Of a DNA stretch of 64,000 nt, positions 30,099-53,419 are shown in pieces; the first letter of the stretch is position 1; every line of letters starts with the position of its first letter. Source of the DNA: a virus (Duplodnaviria; Heunggongvirae; Uroviricota; Caudoviricetes); the IMG/VR virus record IMGVR_UViG_3300015615_000629, positions 64,001-128,000 of that record, one strand, 5' to 3'. The notes beneath the pieces were generated by a model. It made no database searches, was not told the DNA's origin, and saw only the letters and a list, made by a program, of their open reading frames with translations. The position numbers and the translations under genes were made by a program.

Positions 30099-31486
30099 TA
30101 TTTCAACAATCTCTCAGCCGTTTCGAGCGTGGTCATTTCCGGAGTATTACCCGAAGCAATAATCGCCTCCATACTTACAAACCCACCAGTCTTTTGTGAC
30201 AAATCAAAATTCTTGTTAATGAAGTCAATCACTTCTTTAGGATCAATACTGTGATGAAACACGATGTTGGGACCGTGTTCATTTAAGTAAACGGCACTAA
30301 GGTTGCCGAATTGTTTTAATCCCCGCGAAGTATTCTGGCCGCAGGCCATGCTACCGCATTCAAATTCACGCTGCGAAACAACCGGAACCTCGGAACCTTC
30401 ACGGATTGGTACATGAGCATGGACGATACAATCATAGCCTGGATGGTCGTTAAATACAATCCGCTGTGATTGTCCTCCAACCGATGGCTTCGCTCCGTAG
30501 GCGATCACCGTATCTGGCCCGTCTGTCTTGACTTTGACCAAACCAATTTCCGAGATTCTGTTGAAATCGGTTTTTCGGATTGACGTAAGAAACGTCTGGT
30601 CGTCCAATTTGCAGGCGAAATGGCCAGCAGTCGAACCACCAAAAGGCTTATACGCACCTTGTTCAATACAGTAATTAACCACTGTTCTCAAAGAATTCGG
30701 AACTAATTCAGAATTCCAAGGAACCGGTTCGCCAGAAACCACAGTTGAGCGTGTAAAGGTAAGGTGTGACCTTAACTTTGCAATTTCTACCAATTCTTGT
30801 AAAGTTCTCTCCCTTACCGTTGAAACTCCATATCTCGCCTCTTCTGGTGTTACAACCATATTAAGTCGTGTAACCGTATCATTAGCCAAAACAAGATTGC
30901 AACTGGCTCTCTTGCACAATTCCAAACCAGCAATGTATTGCTCGTCAGCGGACTTACCAGTAGTTGTTTTAAAGCCAATCAAAAAGATATCTTTACGGGT
31001 TTTTCTTATCTTTGAGATAATCTTTTCGGCAGGTGTGAGCCGCATGGTAGTTTCGCCATCGTTTGTAAGAAGGCGAGTCGCATGCTTATCGCTGATTGTT
31101 TCGCCAATTTGACCATCAAAATCAACCAACGCGGCCGACATAAAGATAATCTTAGTCTTATCATCTTGAGTTAGATGATCCAACAGAATTGAAATATCTT
31201 GATTTGTAATAAGCCTTGCATCGAAATCTTTATCTTTAATTTCTGCCAGGAGTTTAGCAGAATGGCGGTTAAGGTTTTTGCCGGCCATTCGTGTAAGGAT
31301 TGGCACTACATCCATTTTTGAAAAAGATTCTTGACAAATCCTATTCAAAACGCGAGCGGTGCGACCAAAAGCAGGTGCGGCCAGCGAAAGATGGTTCCGC
31401 ACGTGAGAGAAGGTGCCGCCGCCAATGATTACTACTCGTTTATTGTCCACTTGTCTGTCCTTGTGTGTGAAATCCACTCCAACCAT
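30098..31486 (-). CDS. CoaB (phosphopantothenate-cysteine ligase)-like domain fused to a class II aldolase/adducin-like domain
   Basis: IGGGT, MSAALVDF, LIGFK, CNLVLAND; C-terminal GHFA, FLTS, KPS, IVHAH, HG. Confidence 0.7.
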   Translation of the reverse strand: MVGVDFTHKDRQVDNKRVVIIGGGTFSHVRNHLSLAAPAFGRTARVLNRICQESFSKMDVVPILTRMAGKNLNRHSAKLLAEIKDKDFDARLITNQDISILLDHLTQDDKTKIIFMSAALVDFDGQIGETISDKHATRLLTNDGETTMRLTPAEKIISKIRKTRKDIFLIGFKTTTGKSADEQYIAGLELCKRASCNLVLANDTVTRLNMVVTPEEARYGVSTVRERTLQELVEIAKLRSHLTFTRSTVVSGEPVPWNSELVPNSLRTVVNYCIEQGAYKPFGGSTAGHFACKLDDQTFLTSIRKTDFNRISEIGLVKVKTDGPDTVIAYGAKPSVGGQSQRIVFNDHPGYDCIVHAHVPIREGSEVPVVSQREFECGSMACGQNTSRGLKQFGNLSAVYLNEHGPNIVFHHSIDPKEVIDFINKNFDLSQKTGGFVSMEAIIASGNTPEMTTLETAERLLK

Positions 31487-41719: not shown

Positions 41720-41801
41720 TGGAAGCCGTGAGATTTGAACTCACATCTACAGAGATCGACTTGCGACTTACTCTGTTATCCTACCGTTGAACGAGGCTCC
41801 C
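41720..41801 (-). ncRNA. tRNA-like RNA with enlarged anticodon arm
   Basis: Acceptor GGGAGCC/GGCTTCC-A, D-loop AACGGT, T-arm GTGAG-TTCAAAT-CTCAC. The ACAGAG/CTCTGT stem closes 16 nt. Confidence 0.7.
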
Positions 41802-48047: not shown

Positions 48048-48199
48048 AGATCACTAATTTTTTACTTGCCTATGCTACCATGTTTTCAGTAGCTGTAGGA
48101 ACTATTCTTATCGTAAACTGTTTTGCCAATGGATACCTTTATGGAACACCATTGGGAATAGGACTAAGTATACTGTCCTTAAAACTGTTCCTATTTGAA

Positions 48200-48267
48200 T
48201 GACCCTACGGGGATTCACGACTTCCAGATTGAGGGTCTGGCGTCCTCACCCACTAGACGATAGGGCC
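48200..48267 (-). pseudogene. Degenerate tRNA-Glu(CTC) lacking the T-arm 5' strand
   Basis: GGCCCTA...TAGGGTCA acceptor, CCAGA-CCCTCAA-TCTGG anticodon arm, no GGTTC. Confidence 0.7.
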
Positions 48268-49597: not shown

Positions 49598-49840
49598 TTG
49601 GAGAATACAATGTTGTTGTTGCTCGATCCAGCCGACACAAGTCCCTACGCAATCCTTCAAGGCAGACTCGATGAATTAGAATGTAGAAGGAAATTGCTAA
49701 AAGGCAACAACATCCCAATGGCATTAATGGTAAAAGAAATCAGAAAACTAGAAATCGATTTGCTAAAAATCGATGGACTTATAGAAATCCTTGAGTATAT
49801 TCTAGTTTTAGAATCTAGTTTAAGTGACCCGTGGATTTAA
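49598..49840 (+). CDS. Small helical protein, paralogue of 47820-48047
   Basis: Alignment with its paralogue; SD GGAG. Confidence 0.55.
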   Translation: MENTMLLLLDPADTSPYAILQGRLDELECRRKLLKGNNIPMALMVKEIRKLEIDLLKIDGLIEILEYILVLESSLSDPWI

Positions 49841-49841
49841 G

Positions 49842-49915
49842 TGACCCTACGGGGAGTTGAACCCGCGATTTCCAGCGTGAGAAGCTGGCGTCCTGAGCCA
49901 TTAGACGATAGGGCC
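49842..49915 (-). tRNA. tRNA-Glu(CTC)
   Basis: Cloverleaf; CCAGC-TTCTCAC-GCTGG; GGTTCAACT T-loop. Confidence 0.9.
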
Positions 49916-50287
49916 TTAATGAAATTCCACATTTTCGTTTTTGCTGTATGCGTCTCTTAAACCATTAATAAACTTTACCGCACTATCATAAACCCAACCA
50001 TGCGGGTGCCAGTAATCCCCTTCCTCTGTCTTTAATTCTTCAAGAATAGATTCTAAATCTTCAGCAATTTCAATTCCATCTTCGGGCGATATCTCTCCAT
50101 CACAGTCAGAGTGATGTAAGAGTTTGTTCAAGCCTCTACTTGGAACTTCATCCCAAGGAATCCCGTTTTCACAATATCCTTCCATTGCCTTTAAATTGAT
50201 ACCTATTTTCTCGGCAATAGTTTTACGCCAAGTCATGAAACTAGAATATGAGCCGTGCCAACAATCATGTGTTGTGTCTAAGCCCAC
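49916..50287 (-). CDS. Conserved hypothetical phage protein
   Basis: MGLD...SYS.F..WR...HSDCDG.I. Confidence 0.6.
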   Translation of the reverse strand: MGLDTTHDCWHGSYSSFMTWRKTIAEKIGINLKAMEGYCENGIPWDEVPSRGLNKLLHHSDCDGEISPEDGIEIAEDLESILEELKTEEGDYWHPHGWVYDSAVKFINGLRDAYSKNENVEFH

Positions 50288-50771
50288 GGGTTATCCTTTA
50301 ATTCTGATATTGTATTTTAGCAAGTTCTCTTCTTAAGCCAACAAATATCTCACATCTCATATCAATCAGAACAATAAAAAGTTCGTCTGAACTATTATCG
50401 GCGGCATACATGGCCGCTCGGCAAAATTTGCCTCTGTTGAGCAAATTGTAAAAATGATCAAGGCGTTTCTTGGTGTCGTCTAAACCCACGGGTAGTACCA
50501 ATTTAATCGAGATTTAGCGATGTTGTAAGCGGCTTGAGCAACCGTTGCTTTTCCTCTGCGACGTTTAATTTTCAGAAATTCTCGAAATAGAATTCCCTGT
50601 TTTCGCCTTCTTTCGGCCATTCGCTTGTTCATGCCGATGCCTGTCCAGTCACACGAAGGTATTCAACTATCTCGTCAAATTCTTCGGCAGTAAATGCCTC
50701 TTTTTCAAGTTTTGCCCATTCCTCGTCTTCGCTTTCCATTATAGTCTAAAACTCCGAATATTTCAAGCAAG

Positions 50772-50842
50772 TGGACTCACTGGGAATTGAACCCAGATTT
50801 TTAGACTGCCAGCCTAATGTCTTCCCGTTTGACGATGAGCCC
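50772..50842 (-). tRNA. tRNA-Ala(GGC)
   Basis: G3:U70; TTAGG-CTGGCAG-TCTAA. Confidence 0.85.
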
Positions 50843-50856
50843 ATAAAACTTTAAAA

Positions 50857-50927
50857 TCAAGGTAGAAGAAATCGAATCTTCGCTTTCGGCTCCCCGAACC
50901 GACGGACTACCATTATCCCATACCCTG
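50857..50927 (-). tRNA. tRNA-Pro(GGG)
   Basis: C1-G72, A73; TCGGT-TCGGGGA-GCCGA (C33 is unusual). Confidence 0.75.
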
Positions 50928-50931
50928 GAAG

Positions 50932-51003
50932 TAGACAGTACAGGGTTTGAACCTGTGACCTTTTCCGTGTCGAGGAAACGCTCTACCACTGAGCTAACTG
51001 TCT
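50932..51003 (-). tRNA. tRNA-Val(GAC)
   Basis: TTTCC-TCGACAC-GGAAA; GGTTCAAAC. Confidence 0.85.
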
Positions 51004-51020
51004 ATAATCTATTTTTAAAG

Positions 51021-51094
51021 TGCGGCTGCGGAGAATTGAACTCCGTCTTCGAACTTGGCAGAATCGCGTGCGAAAACCACTACACTACAGCCGC
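51021..51094 (-). tRNA. tRNA-Gly(GCC)
   Basis: GCGGCTG/CAGCCGC; CGATT-CTGCCAA-GTTCG. Confidence 0.85.
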
Positions 51095-51098
51095 AAAA

Positions 51099-51170
51099 TG
51101 ACCCGTGAGGGAGTCGAACCCTCCTCTGCTGCTTGAAAAACAGCCATCCTGACCGCTAAACGAACGGGCC
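51099..51170 (-). tRNA. tRNA-Glu(TTC)
   Basis: GCTGT-TTTTCAA-GCAGC; GGTTCGACT. Confidence 0.9.
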
Positions 51171-51812
51171 TTGTGTTAATTTCTGAATTTCTTCAATTTT
51201 ATCTCGTGGCGTTAATGCTCTTGTGCAATAAATCCATTCTCCGTCTACTAATTTTAAATGTCTAATTATGTGACAGGATGCACAAACTATTTCCAAATTC
51301 TCTTCACAATTATTCAAATTATTGCCATCAATATGATGAATAAAAAGAAGAAATTTAGCTGTTTCGCCACAACCAACGCATCCTTTTGTTTCTTCGTCCG
51401 ATAATCTTTCTTTTTTTATTCTTTTTGCCAGTTGAGATTTTTCTGCTGTCCCGTAATGTGGTGGCATTATTTCTTTAATACCACCAATACGTTGAGCCAT
51501 ATCCTTGCATTTTCTAGAACAGAATCTAAATCCGGATTTTGAATTTTTAAATTTACAATCGAGCTTTTCGAATTCATCTTTACAATAATCGCAAACTAAT
51601 ATTGTTCTACGTTGTCTTCCTTTATCTGCACATTGCTTACTACAAAATCTTCTTTTACCAGTTAGAATATCTTTTGCTCTAGCCGAAAATAATGTGCCGC
51701 AACCTTCGCACTTTTTTTCCAAACCTTTACGTCTTCTGCCGCCTTCTTCGATAATCCAAATTTCCATTTTATCCTCCACATTACAAGAGTGTGGAGGATA
51801 AAATATTTGCAA
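51156..51812 (-). CDS. HNH homing endonuclease with Zn-finger repeats inside the tRNA array
   Basis: C..C..FCS..C twice; IHHIDGNNLNN...NL...CASCH. Confidence 0.85.
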   Translation of the reverse strand: MQIFYPPHSCNVEDKMEIWIIEEGGRRRKGLEKKCEGCGTLFSARAKDILTGKRRFCSKQCADKGRQRRTILVCDYCKDEFEKLDCKFKNSKSGFRFCSRKCKDMAQRIGGIKEIMPPHYGTAEKSQLAKRIKKERLSDEETKGCVGCGETAKFLLFIHHIDGNNLNNCEENLEIVCASCHIIRHLKLVDGEWIYCTRALTPRDKIEEIQKLTQGPFV

Positions 51813-51840
51813 TGCAAATTAATATTTTCCCAAATTTAAG

Positions 51841-51911
51841 TCCTCCCTGAAGGAGTCGAGCCTTCTACGCTTGCTTGTAATGCAAGAATGATTCCGTTTC
51901 ACCAAGGGAGG
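51841..51911 (-). tRNA. tRNA-Val(TAC), atypical body
   Basis: CCTCCCT/AGGGAGG-A; CTTGC-ATTACAA-GCAAG; T-loop CTCGACT. Confidence 0.7.
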
Positions 51912-51914
51912 AAG

Positions 51915-51985
51915 TGGACCCAGAGAGAATCAAACTCTCGCTTTCGGATTGCAAAACCGACGTACTCTCATTATACTATGAGCCC
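51915..51985 (-). tRNA. tRNA-Ala(TGC)
   Basis: G3:U70; TCGGT-TTTGCAA-TCCGA. Confidence 0.8.
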
Positions 51986-52017
51986 AAATTTAACTTCAAA
52001 ATTTTCAAAGAACAAAG

Positions 52018-52088
52018 TAGCCCGTAGGAGAATCGAACTCCTGTTGAAGCGATGAAAGCGCCTTCGCCTACCACTAGCGGAACGGGCC
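52018..52088 (-). tRNA. tRNA-Glu(TTC)
   Basis: AGGCG-CTTTCAT-CGCTT; AGTTCGATT. Confidence 0.85.
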
Positions 52089-52092
52089 AAAA

Positions 52093-52163
52093 TAGCGACA
52101 AGTGGAATTGAACCACTATAGGGAGCGTATGAAACTCCTGCACTACCGTTGTGCTATGTCGCC
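52093..52163 (-). tRNA. tRNA-Met/Ile2(CAT)
   Basis: GGAGT-TTCATAC-GCTCC; GGTTCAATT. Confidence 0.85.
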
Positions 52164-52424
52164 ATCAAAAACTATTCAACTAAATCGTTGCTATTCATCC
52201 TCTCTGTAAGAGTTTCTAACAGTTTTGGATTTCCAATTAACTTTTTCAACATTTGAACATCCGCATTGCAATCTGCTAAACGGCTTTCAAGTTGTTCAAG
52301 CAGTCGCAACACAAAATCGTTAGCGTCCATTTTCGTATCCTTCTAGAGAAGTGAAACCCACTACCCTATAGGGACACAAAACAGGCTGCTAGCCGCCACA
52401 ATTCCGTGAATTTTCTCCAAAAAG

Positions 52425-52498
52425 TCGGAATGGACGAATTCGAATCGTCGGCCTCTCGCTCCCGAAGCGAGCGCTCTTCCAAACTGAGCTACATTCCG
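52425..52498 (-). tRNA. tRNA-Pro(CGG)
   Basis: CGGAATG/CATTCCG-A; CTCGC-TTCGGGA-GCGAG. Confidence 0.9.
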
Positions 52499-52506
52499 AT
52501 AACTAA

Positions 52507-52577
52507 TCAAGGTAGTTGGAATCGAACCAACGCCCCGAGCTTCCAAAACTCGTAGACTACCACTATCCCATACCCTG
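52507..52577 (-). tRNA. tRNA-Pro(TGG), first tRNA of the array
   Basis: CGAGT-TTTGGAA-GCTCG; GGTTCGATT. Confidence 0.9.
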
Positions 52578-52585
52578 TAAAAACG

Positions 52586-52620
52586 AAAAAACCCGCATCA
52601 GGTTTTATCCTGAGCGGGTT
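52586..52620 (-). terminator. Attenuator intrinsic terminator directly upstream of the tRNA array
   Basis: AACCCGC-TCAGG-ATAAAA-CCTGA-T-GCGGGTT followed by TTTTCGTTTTT. Confidence 0.85.
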
Positions 52621-52685
52621 CCAGTATTAACTTTGAACCAAACTCAGGATTACTTTCCTGAGTTGGTGATTACCAGCAGGAAAGC
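52607..52685 (-). promoter_or_regulatory. Alternative hairpins (1:2, 2:3, 3:4 antiterminator) of the tRNA-array attenuator
   Basis: GCTTTCCTG/CAGGAAAGT; AACTCAGGA/TCCTGAGTT; ATCCTGAG..GGTTC/GAACC..CTCAGGAT. Confidence 0.75.
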
Positions 52686-52689
52686 GCGG

Positions 52690-52761
52690 TTAGGCTGCGG
52701 GGGCTGGACGTTCGCCAGCCGGCATACCTTCGACCATCGCTTCCACTACTGCTAATTTCAT
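52690..52761 (-). CDS. Leader peptide MKLAVVEAMVEGMPAGERPAPAA of the tRNA array
   Basis: ATG with SD AGAAGGA, 23 codons, then TAA. Twenty codons are Ala/Val/Glu/Met/Gly/Pro, the families in the array. Confidence 0.8.
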   Translation of the reverse strand: MKLAVVEAMVEGMPAGERPAPAA

Positions 52762-52864
52762 TGTATTGTTCCTTCTTCTCTTATCTATGCACGTTGCACG
52801 GATTTTTCACTACTACGTAATTGTGCCTCAACCTACGTGTTCTACGCAGGTCGTCACTTCCACC

Positions 52865-52892
52865 AGTTTAGCACGATTTTTTCGATTGTCAA
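52865..52892 (-). promoter_or_regulatory. sigma70-type promoter of the leader/tRNA array
   Basis: TTGACA-N16-TAAACT with extended -10 (GTGC). Confidence 0.75.
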
Positions 52893-52897
52893 GCGAC

Positions 52898-53419
52898 TCA
52901 AGAAAAATTTTCTTCGCACCACTCTTTGAATCCAGCCTTCTTACCATAACGTGTCCGAATGTATTTCTTATAAGCCTCTGGACTCATTTTACCTCTAGGA
53001 CGAGCCTCGGGCCTTCTATAAGGCGAATCCCCAGAACCCATATTTATTGTATCTGGATGTAATACGGTTACGGGATCAACATCCTGCGATGCAGCATAAG
53101 CAACATTTCTTCTGGTTCCAAATCCTTGTTCTTTCTGAAACTGTTGTCTTACAAAGTCTGAGACAATCGTGCCACGCCTAGAAAACGGCATATTCTGGAA
53201 TGAGGGAACTTTTCTTTGAACATAATCATTAACCATCTGAATAAGTTTGTCCCTATTGTCCATAAAATATTGGTAATTATTATGCATCCAATTTGGCTTT
53301 CCTTTACCGTTAAGTGGATTAGATGCATATCTTAGTGCGGAGTCAACAAATTTAGGGACATCCGGTAACATGTCTCTGTCGGCTCGCATAACCATTTCTA
53401 CATATTCTTTGAACAACAT
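52898..53419 (-). CDS. Hypothetical protein with FKEY/FKEW motifs (possible internal virion protein)
   Basis: MLFKEYVEM...GFKEWCEE; CTAAATA just upstream. Confidence 0.55.
   Translation of the reverse strand: MLFKEYVEMVMRADRDMLPDVPKFVDSALRYASNPLNGKGKPNWMHNNYQYFMDNRDKLIQMVNDYVQRKVPSFQNMPFSRRGTIVSDFVRQQFQKEQGFGTRRNVAYAASQDVDPVTVLHPDTINMGSGDSPYRRPEARPRGKMSPEAYKKYIRTRYGKKAGFKEWCEENFS

Follow-up and report, generated by a model that had tools for sequence, protein, structure and literature searches.

The window analysed here, a stretch of 64,000 nucleotides (nt) corresponding to bases 64001-128000 of the virus record IMGVR_UViG_3300015615_000629, carries on its minus strand an array of 12 tRNA genes (array 1) preceded by a putative promoter, a 23-codon open reading frame (ORF) and an intrinsic terminator. 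This leader, termed L1, is probably a ribosome-mediated (leader-peptide) attenuator, in which a ribosome stalled on codons cognate to the array would relieve termination ahead of the tRNA genes. The evidence comprises the anatomy of the locus, the statistics of its codons, paralogous units of the same genome in which leader and array covary, alternative RNA folds obtained in silico, and independent examples in other phages. With 572,167 base pairs (bp), direct terminal repeats and a G+C content of ca. 40%, the complete record is that of a very large phage. Positions given for L1 are window coordinates on the minus strand, while those of two further leaders, L2 and L3, are genome coordinates.

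The L1 leader and its codon match to the tRNA array

The original prediction, made from the letters of the window, described a promoter, a ribosome-binding site (RBS), an ORF with its codons, a terminator and the anticodons of 12 tRNA genes, and each of these elements was found in place. The leader is organized as follows.

52865..52892, minus strand: sigma-70-type promoter, TTGACA-N16-TAAACT, with a TG extended -10 (10/12 matches)
52762..52858, minus strand: structured 5' untranslated region of ca. 97 nt, from folding
52774-52770, minus strand: RBS AAGGA, 8 nt 5' of the ATG, of the type and spacing found in the phage's genes
52690..52761, minus strand: leader ORF L1, 23 codons, MKLAVVEAMVEGMPAGERPAPAA, with a TAA stop, from sequence
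52579..52622, minus strand: intrinsic terminator region, hairpin plus T-tract
52620-52609, minus strand: 5' arm of the terminator, AACCCGCTCAGG, in a 12-bp GC-rich hairpin
52608-52603, minus strand: loop of the terminator hairpin, ATAAAA
52602-52590, minus strand: 3' arm of the terminator hairpin, CCTGATGCGGGTT
52590-52579, minus strand: T-tract of the terminator, TTTTTCGTTTTT, from sequence

The RBS is typical of this phage, AAGGA and AGGAA being the most frequent pentamers 5' of its long ORFs, and the L1 ORF is the only ATG-initiated ORF of at least 8 codons in the interval between the promoter and the first tRNA. About 70 nt of hairpin-forming RNA separate its stop codon from the terminator, and the leader transcript as a whole is strongly structured (folding z = -7.95 against shuffled sequences). 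A single nucleotide lies between the end of the T-tract and the start of tRNA-Pro(TGG) at 52577; this gap would not accommodate a promoter, and the search for promoter-like sites gave none between the L1 terminator and its array. As the terminators of L1, L2 and L3 adjoin their first tRNA (1-22 nt 5' of it) and no promoter-like site follows the L1 terminator, the tRNAs would be producible by read-through only.

Array 1 extends down to position 49841. Eleven of its genes were called by ARAGORN, and Rfam added the tRNA-Ala(TGC).

52507..52577, minus strand: tRNA-Pro(TGG), first of the array (ARAGORN and Rfam)
52424..52498, minus strand: tRNA-Pro(CGG) (ARAGORN and Rfam)
52092..52164, minus strand: tRNA with a CAT anticodon, Met, or Ile2 if modified (ARAGORN and Rfam)
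52017..52088, minus strand: tRNA-Glu(TTC) (ARAGORN and Rfam)
51915..51985, minus strand: tRNA-Ala(TGC) (Rfam, 59.3 bits; ARAGORN on the excised stretch)
51840..51911, minus strand: tRNA-Val(TAC) (ARAGORN and Rfam)
51099..51170, minus strand: tRNA-Glu(TTC), second copy (ARAGORN and Rfam)
51020..51094, minus strand: tRNA-Gly(GCC) (ARAGORN and Rfam)
50931..51003, minus strand: tRNA-Val(GAC) (ARAGORN and Rfam)
50857..50927, minus strand: tRNA-Pro(GGG) (ARAGORN and Rfam)
50771..50842, minus strand: tRNA-Ala(GGC) (ARAGORN and Rfam)
49841..49915, minus strand: tRNA-Glu(CTC), last of the array (ARAGORN and Rfam)

The codons of L1 closely mirror this set, as had been claimed. A codon was scored as readable when a tRNA of the array decodes it under standard wobble, the start codon being excluded. 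By this measure, 19 of 22 L1 codons are readable by array 1, the unread ones being AAA, TTA and CGT, so that the entire stretch from codon 4 to codon 23 is array-readable save for CGT (codon 18). Measured against the codon usage of the genome, the yardstick that the original prediction had pointed to, this is a marked enrichment (binomial p = 2.8e-8), the same codons having a frequency of 0.29 in the phage's own genes. No in-frame window of the long ORFs equalled the match (0/200,000), and a single short ATG ORF did so among the 2,471 of the genome, the leader itself being counted in. L1 also contains a Watson-Crick codon for 10 of the 11 distinct anticodons of the array, a coverage matched by 3/200,000 random gene windows, and its three Pro codons do correspond to the three Pro anticodons, as originally noticed. 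The match is specific to the reading frame (3-9 readable codons of 21-22 in the five remaining frames) and disappears on shuffling, none of 20,000 base shuffles of L1 reaching 19 readable codons. These two properties indicate that a GC-rich, structured RNA, which favours GNN and CCN codons, is not the cause of the match.

Paralogous units in the same genome and leaders in other phages

When the L1 leader DNA was used as a query against the genome, a second terminator was retrieved that is 92% identical over 38 nt (genome 341959-341996) and abuts a tRNA gene. Two more leader ORFs, both ending with TGA, precede tRNA arrays in this genome.

342142-342053 (genome): L2 ORF, 29 codons, MSLMIGTRRDKQHNWCDINTRQGCTIISS, before array 2, from sequence
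302246-302181 (genome): L3 ORF, 21 codons, MNAMFSLSLSFLSLSLYSDDG, before array 3, from sequence

Array 2, behind L2, encodes tRNAs for Thr, Cys, Lys, Ile, Arg, Gly, Trp, Asn, Asp, His and Gln, and array 3, behind L3, encodes five tRNAs for Leu, one for Phe and then three for Ser. L2 is located inside a tRNA operon, 3' of a tRNA-Met and two odd tRNA-like genes, with the operon promoter at ca. 342619-342590. The L3 promoter, at genome 302325, has a consensus that is common to L1 (CGCTTGACAA.CGAAAA...GTGCTAA), and the L3 terminator, with a 15-bp hairpin, ends a few bases 5' of a tRNA-Leu gene.

Each leader is matched to its own array. The numbers of codons readable by arrays 1, 2 and 3 are 19, 2 and 1 of 22 for L1, 2, 22 and 3 of 28 for L2, and 3, 3 and 12 of 20 for L3. 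The resulting own-array p values are 2.8e-8, 4e-4 and 6e-5 for L1, L2 and L3, respectively, with a relaxed tRNA set, and 2.8e-8, 2.6e-3 and 1e-2 with strict tRNA calls alone; their product is ca. 7e-16, or ca. 7e-13 on strict calls. Several leader codons had at first no matching tRNA, namely CGA and CGC in L2 and AGT, AGC and TCG in L3; when the two array regions were rescanned with ARAGORN under relaxed settings, tRNAs for Arg(TCG), Arg(ACG), Ser(GCT) and Ser(CGA) came to light. The leaders thus pointed to four tRNAs absent from the calls at default thresholds and, if the proposed mechanism is correct, they predict the content of their arrays and can serve as an annotation tool.

The three units split the genetic code between them, L1 covering Ala, Val, Glu, Gly, Pro and Met, L2 covering Ile, Thr, Arg, Asp, Lys, Gln, His, Asn, Trp, Cys and Gly, and L3 covering Phe, Leu, Ser and Tyr. 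Within the leaders, synonymous codons are spread rather than repeated, with three Pro codons for three Pro anticodons, five different Leu codons that occur a single time, and three codons for each of Thr and Arg, which suggests that the leaders sample isoacceptors and not amino acids. The RNA that follows the stop codon is 77% identical between L1 and L2, with the hairpin-forming segments (2-5) conserved, while the two ORFs share nothing. L1 and L2 are thus paralogous scaffolds whose test ORFs diverged together with their arrays. The covariation of leader and array content that the original prediction called for is therefore seen both in the diagonal pattern of matches and in this common scaffold carrying different ORFs.

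Two minor elements were noticed at these loci. A seven-codon micro-ORF, GTG CGT GAA GAA AAA ATG ATT TGA, with a perfect AAGGAGG RBS, occurs at genome 342440-342470, just 5' of the first tRNA-like genes in the array-2 operon. At genome ~299,900-300,000 lies a tRNA-like sequence that neither ARAGORN nor Rfam called; its acceptor stem is good and it has a T arm and the anticodon loop CTGTAGA (GTA, Tyr), but its D region is aberrant and its variable region long. The lone TAT codon of L3 would need a tRNA such as this one.

Comparable leaders were found in other phages. The genome has a terminase-like gene (genome 480595-482400) with distant relatives in IMG/VR, and the tRNA regions of three of these relatives were inspected. 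In IMGVR_UViG_3300042467_002158, which has a terminase 26% identical and Bacteroidota-type promoters, the order is promoter, 34-codon ORF, MKNTLKHMVNCLPSNQWSFSYITRNQSRVFSLMS, and terminator, the last abutting a block of 15 tRNAs. This leader samples 15/15 anticodons of the block, which none of 200,000 random windows of that phage's genes does, and 32/33 of its residues after the start are amino acids of its block. Ala, Asp, Glu and Gly are missing from it and are present in a second leader of the same phage, MKNLHILLIGGDLAEATFKRRV, which precedes a Leu, Phe, Met, Ile, Gly, Ala, Asp and Glu block and samples 8/8 of its anticodons (p = 0.004). The two other distant relatives have several tRNA-abutting terminators without a convincing matched leader.

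A cultured phage, Caulobacter phage phiCbK, offers a further case. Its GenBank record annotates rho-independent terminators directly 5' of three tRNA blocks, at 48120-48166, 49745-49769 and 51465-51502, and a promoter-like site and a short ORF precede each of them. Two of these ORFs match their own block, gp083 with 21/44 codons (p = 1.4e-4) and the ORF at 51341-51439 with 11/31 codons (p = 0.03); unit 1, before the Glu and Asp tRNAs, showed no significant codon match. The phiCbK genome paper mentions neither leaders nor attenuation. Judged from these codon matches, phiCbK carries a weaker version of the leader design.

In a family of IMG/VR phage contigs, represented by seven loci, a promoter (TTGACA-N12-GTGCTAAGAT) lies ca. 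155 nt before a tRNA array with the conserved order Val-Pro-Leu-Ala-Gly-Gln-Ser. Neither a terminator nor an ATG ORF of at least 8 codons ending before the first tRNA was found in this interval, and one ATG frame runs on into the tRNA-Val gene. As these arrays have no leader, the device is not universal; the sequence comparisons taken together indicate that it is recurrent. The expectation that tRNA arrays would come with an upstream ORF covarying with them thus held for the leader units found and failed for this family.

Other searches returned little. Matches to the promoter motif CGCTTGACAANCGAAAA in IMG/VR were mostly due to chance. One of them, with a promoter, a 25-codon ORF and a terminator located ca. 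240 nt ahead of a 22-tRNA array, was not counted as support because its array covers nearly all amino acids and the codon match is non-discriminating. BLAST against INPHARED phages matched tRNA genes only; neither IMG/VR nor the metagenome contigs yielded a match to the L1 terminator pattern; a comparison with an index of other sequence windows gave nothing similar; and the upstream 173-amino-acid gene and the 1109-amino-acid gene had no relatives in IMG/VR. A single homologue of the upstream gene, 72% identical, is borne by an 832-bp contig without a leader. Separately, in two distantly related large IMG/VR phages, L181 (361 kb, at ~880-910) and L182 (222 kb, at ~565-600), the stretch from an ORF of 41-43 codons to the terminator 5' of the tRNA arrays contains a conserved motif, ACACATAGGTTT.TAACCACAACATATT, which may represent another leader type.

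RNA folding, proposed mechanism and rival explanations

In silico, the RNA between the L1 start codon and the terminator can adopt mutually exclusive folds, built from the following segments.

52732..52755, minus strand: segment 0, leader codons 3-10, pairing with segment 1 when the RNA is ribosome-free (minimum-free-energy folds)
52672..52685, minus strand: segment 1, GCTTTCCTGCTGGT, beginning 5 nt past the stop codon, pairing with segment 0 or 2
52652..52667, minus strand: segment 2, ACCAACTCAGGAAAGT, pairing with segment 1 or 3, its CTCAGGA core conserved in L2
52635..52651, minus strand: segment 3, AATCCTGAGTTTGGTTC, pairing with segment 2 or with the terminator 5' arm (antiterminator)

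The pairing elements form an overlapping chain, with GCUUUCCUGCUGGU in segment 1, ACCAACUCAGGAAAGU in segment 2 and AAUCCUGAGUUUGGUUC in segment 3. One fold combines the 0:1 and 2:3 helices with the terminator, and the other combines 1:2 with 3:4, segment 4 being the terminator 5' arm.

The effect of a ribosome was modelled by removing every base up to 12 nt beyond the first nucleotide of the codon in the A site; for the RNA that remained, the terminator helix was assigned an equilibrium probability, P(terminator). With only the RNA 3' of the ribosome considered, P(terminator) for L1 was 0.95 in the ribosome-free state and 0.87-0.97 with the ribosome at codons 1-3, at codon 23 or at the stop codon; it fell to 0.00-0.39 with the A site on codons 4-22. 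This predicted antiterminator window approximates the array-matched stretch of the ORF, the unmatched AAA and TTA (codons 2-3) being outside it. In a second test restricted to a truncated transcript, with RNA up to the terminator loop, the 5' arm of L2 was in the antiterminator (P ~0.9) with a ribosome on codons 1-25, and the ribosome-free RNA formed the 2:3 hairpin. As a control, the trpL leader of Escherichia coli gave P(terminator) of at least 0.92 everywhere in the full-length equilibrium test, that is, no switch; its truncated transcript reproduced the known behaviour, the 5' arm being paired at 0.62 with the ribosome at codons 6-12 and at 0.01-0.03 at codons 14-15. As modelled on the full-length RNA, the L1 switch is cleaner than this textbook case. 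When pairing across the ribosome was allowed, equilibrium folding yielded the terminator in every state of L1, L2 and L3. This variant was rejected as uninformative, since a helix that encloses a ribosome is unrealistic and since trpL, too, showed no switch at equilibrium. The modelling, which applies thermodynamics to a kinetic process, supports without proving a polarity in which stalling gives read-through.

The mechanism proposed on this basis would proceed as follows. Transcription would begin at the sigma-70-type promoter (52892-52865), as its sequence suggests, and a ribosome would load at AAGGA/ATG and translate the 23-codon ORF, a step for which the codon match is observed and translation itself is presumed. 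If the ribosome is absent, or reaches the stop codon and is released, the 0:1 and 2:3 helices would form and the polymerase would halt at the T-tract. If it is held on any of codons 4-22 by scarcity of the cognate aminoacyl-tRNA, segment 0 would be occupied, the antiterminator would form and the polymerase would enter the tRNA genes. Since the tRNA products read the test codons, the system would exert negative feedback on decoding capacity and behave as an OR-gate over ca. ten isoacceptors. As a natural trigger, we conjecture a loss or shortage of host tRNAs during infection, caused by host shut-off, tRNA-targeting defence or a codon-usage mismatch. The central claim of the original prediction, that a translated leader samples several codon families and gates tRNA genes, is thus supported, at the level of sequence and modelling, by L2 and L3, by their covariation with the arrays, by the predicted folds and by the leaders of unrelated phages.

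Several observations weigh against this interpretation. Leader translation, termination, its relief and the polarity of the switch are all inferred. One anticodon of array 1, Glu(CTC), is not sampled by L1, and only 12/20 codons of L3 are readable by its array. Each test codon is present once or twice, without the runs found in hisL or pheL, and the response to a partial tRNA shortage may be low as a result. Strong promoter-like sites also occur within array 1 on the minus strand, at 50738-50766 and 51970-51999 (11/12 and 10/12 matches), and, to judge from their sequence, might free the distal tRNAs and the small ORFs interspersed with them from the attenuator. On the modelling side, L2 and L3 retain the terminator in the full-length equilibrium fold wherever the ribosome is placed, the antiterminator of L3 has only ca. 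7 bp with no switch seen, and the truncated-transcript test of L1 favours the antiterminator in all states and so does not discriminate. As the full-length test also fails on the proven trpL attenuator, the negative results for L2 and L3 are weak evidence against a switch. Finally, no close relative was present in the collections searched, which precluded a conservation test of L1 itself.

An ORF matched to the array could also control the terminator with the opposite polarity or another coupling, in which a ribosome trailing the polymerase, or blocking Rho/NusG, would give read-through, resulting in positive feedback or a quality check. The direction of the switch is deduced from in-silico folds, and both the persistence of the L2 and L3 terminators in all states and the non-discriminating truncated test of L1 leave room for this scheme. 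We nevertheless regard it as rather unlikely, since a ribosome terminating at the stop codons, which are located 27-70 nt 5' of the 5' arm of the terminator, would be too distant to block the hairpin directly, and since the predicted fold of L1 is the antiterminator at codons 4-22 and the terminator at the stop, with the truncated transcript of L2 pointing in the same direction. Positive feedback on tRNA supply would, moreover, have no obvious use.

A related question concerns the signal to which the attenuator evolved to respond. The same device might report amino-acid starvation or general tRNA charging, as in trp and his, and not tRNA loss: a stalled ribosome is blind to whether a tRNA is absent or uncharged, and classical attenuators read charging. 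This is an unlikely function here, as extra tRNA is no remedy for amino-acid starvation and as the leaders sample isoacceptors, with varied Pro, Leu, Thr and Arg codons and no single-codon runs, which fits a test of individual tRNAs.

It is very improbable that the short ORFs are chance frames in a structured, biased RNA and the hairpins ordinary terminators or insulators of upstream units. The L1 RNA is indeed GC-rich and structured (z = -7.95), GC-rich codons specify Gly, Ala, Val and Pro, and the phage family described above has the same promoter type ahead of tRNA arrays without leader or terminator. Yet the match is frame-specific and lost on shuffling, it recurs threefold with complementary codon sets, at a joint p of ca. 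1e-13 to 1e-15, and again in unrelated phages, and the terminators lie 1-22 nt before the tRNAs, with no promoter-like site after that of L1. Equally far-fetched is a primary role for the products, as functional small peptides or a terminated leader RNA acting in trans as a small RNA, with their place before tRNAs being incidental: there is a precedent in the attenuator leader rnTrpL and the peptide peTrpL of Sinorhizobium, which are reported to have trans functions (PMC6614838 and PMC7298713), but the three peptides share no sequence and are low-complexity checklists with a composition set by the arrays, and a trans role would be additional to a cis role and no substitute for it.

Relation to known systems and other tRNA-like elements

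The attenuator reading of L1 places it beside well-studied bacterial systems. The ilvGMEDA leader senses Ile, Val and Leu, the thr leader senses Thr and Ile, and trpL, hisL, leuL and pheL are likewise leader-peptide attenuators. The phage leaders resemble these enterobacterial attenuators in having a promoter-proximal short ORF with diagnostic codons and an intrinsic terminator; overlapping alternative hairpins, a decision by ribosome position and read-through upon stalling are proposed for them likewise, and ilv and thr also sense several amino acids together. In contrast, enterobacterial attenuators regulate biosynthetic enzymes and use runs of codons for one to three amino acids, whereas the phage leaders precede tRNA genes and sample 6-11 families, with up to ca. 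15 isoacceptors, mostly once each. The phage output would also feed back on decoding itself, and L1 and L2 comprise five segments, with the 5' half of the ORF predicted to act as an anti-anti-antiterminator, unlike their enterobacterial counterparts. In E. coli, pheST, with its pheM leader, illustrates attenuation of a phenylalanyl-tRNA synthetase with feedback through charged tRNA. As proposed for the phage tRNAs, a component of the translation apparatus is there under leader-peptide attenuation, although pheM responds to a single amino acid, by means of a run of Phe codons, and its target is the synthetase instead of tRNA genes.

T-boxes bind an uncharged tRNA through a specifier codon and the T-box sequence, without translation and for a single tRNA. 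Like the phage element, a T-box is a leader RNA that reads the status of tRNA and switches between terminator and antiterminator; the phage element differs by its translatable ORF. A T-box identity for L1 was rejected, there being no Rfam T-box match in the window at 52300-53000 even at E up to 10. At gathering thresholds, Rfam detected tRNAs only. Under permissive settings the best match was His_leader, with 23.5 bits (cut-off 49, E = 0.17), accompanied by sub-threshold matches to the trpB-motif and isrK, all of which reflect the terminator hairpin. Membership in the curated Rfam leader families (His_leader, Trp_leader, Leu_leader, Thr_leader and others) was likewise set aside, none reaching its gathering score. 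Since leaders are analogous and not homologous across lineages, this negative result excludes those families and not the mechanistic class.

Leader-peptide attenuation is known from amino-acid biosynthetic operons and from a small number of synthetase genes, and large phage tRNA sets are thought to replace or supplement host tRNAs, through codon compensation or as a counter-defence against tRNA-targeting immunity. Work on phage tRNA arrays has addressed why phages carry tRNAs; the subject here is a sensor that would condition their transcription on the decoding of codons. A full-text literature search, with most subscription journals outside it, returned no account of leader-peptide control of tRNA genes, in agreement with the original statement that no such system had been described. 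The new elements are tRNAs as the regulated genes, a checklist in which isoacceptors appear about once each, and feedback of the products on the tested codons. To our knowledge, no other natural regulator of tRNA genes with feedback from decoding speed is known.

More tentatively, such codon-checklist attenuators may form a widespread and convergent class in phages, monitoring isoacceptors and turning on the matching block only when one fails, as an inducible answer to tRNA-cleaving defences and host shut-off; we see this generalization as possible, somewhat short of probable. If the proposed mechanism is correct, phage tRNA arrays would be conditional, self-limiting modules, which would revise current views of codon adaptation and of the escape from tRNA-targeting immunity, and tRNA supply would be regulated by direct feedback from decoding speed. 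The leaders would then also be compact, modular sensors of decoding capacity usable in synthetic biology, and, should the class be real, it would offer a natural means of sensing decoding capacity inside the cell at the resolution of single isoacceptors.

Several other tRNA-like elements were observed in the genome. Two sequences of the window, at 41720-41801 and 48200-48267, are tRNA-like (Rfam 45.3 and 35.5 bits) without a normal anticodon loop and may be pseudo-tRNAs or tRNA mimics. Genome positions 30802-30894 and 286239-286310 encode tRNAs with CTA (amber-reading) and TCA (opal-reading) anticodons, respectively; genome-wide recoding of TAG or TGA was considered for them and dropped, ORF-length statistics giving no sign of it. 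A structured RNA driven by the promoter consensus already described (TTGACAAACGAAAA) lies at genome 286150-286890; it begins with GGGGAGTGGCAACC, has a tRNA-like T-arm/acceptor at its end (...GGTTCGAATCCAGCATCTCCCGCC) and precedes three copies of the motif GTCTCCAAC..GC..TTACAAACA. This RNA is not a leader unit, and the question arises whether it is transfer-messenger-RNA-like. Finally, genome 321586-321685 harbours, outside the gated arrays, a 100-nt tRNA (Rfam 57.7 bits) whose anticodon is TAT and whose variable region is long and branched.

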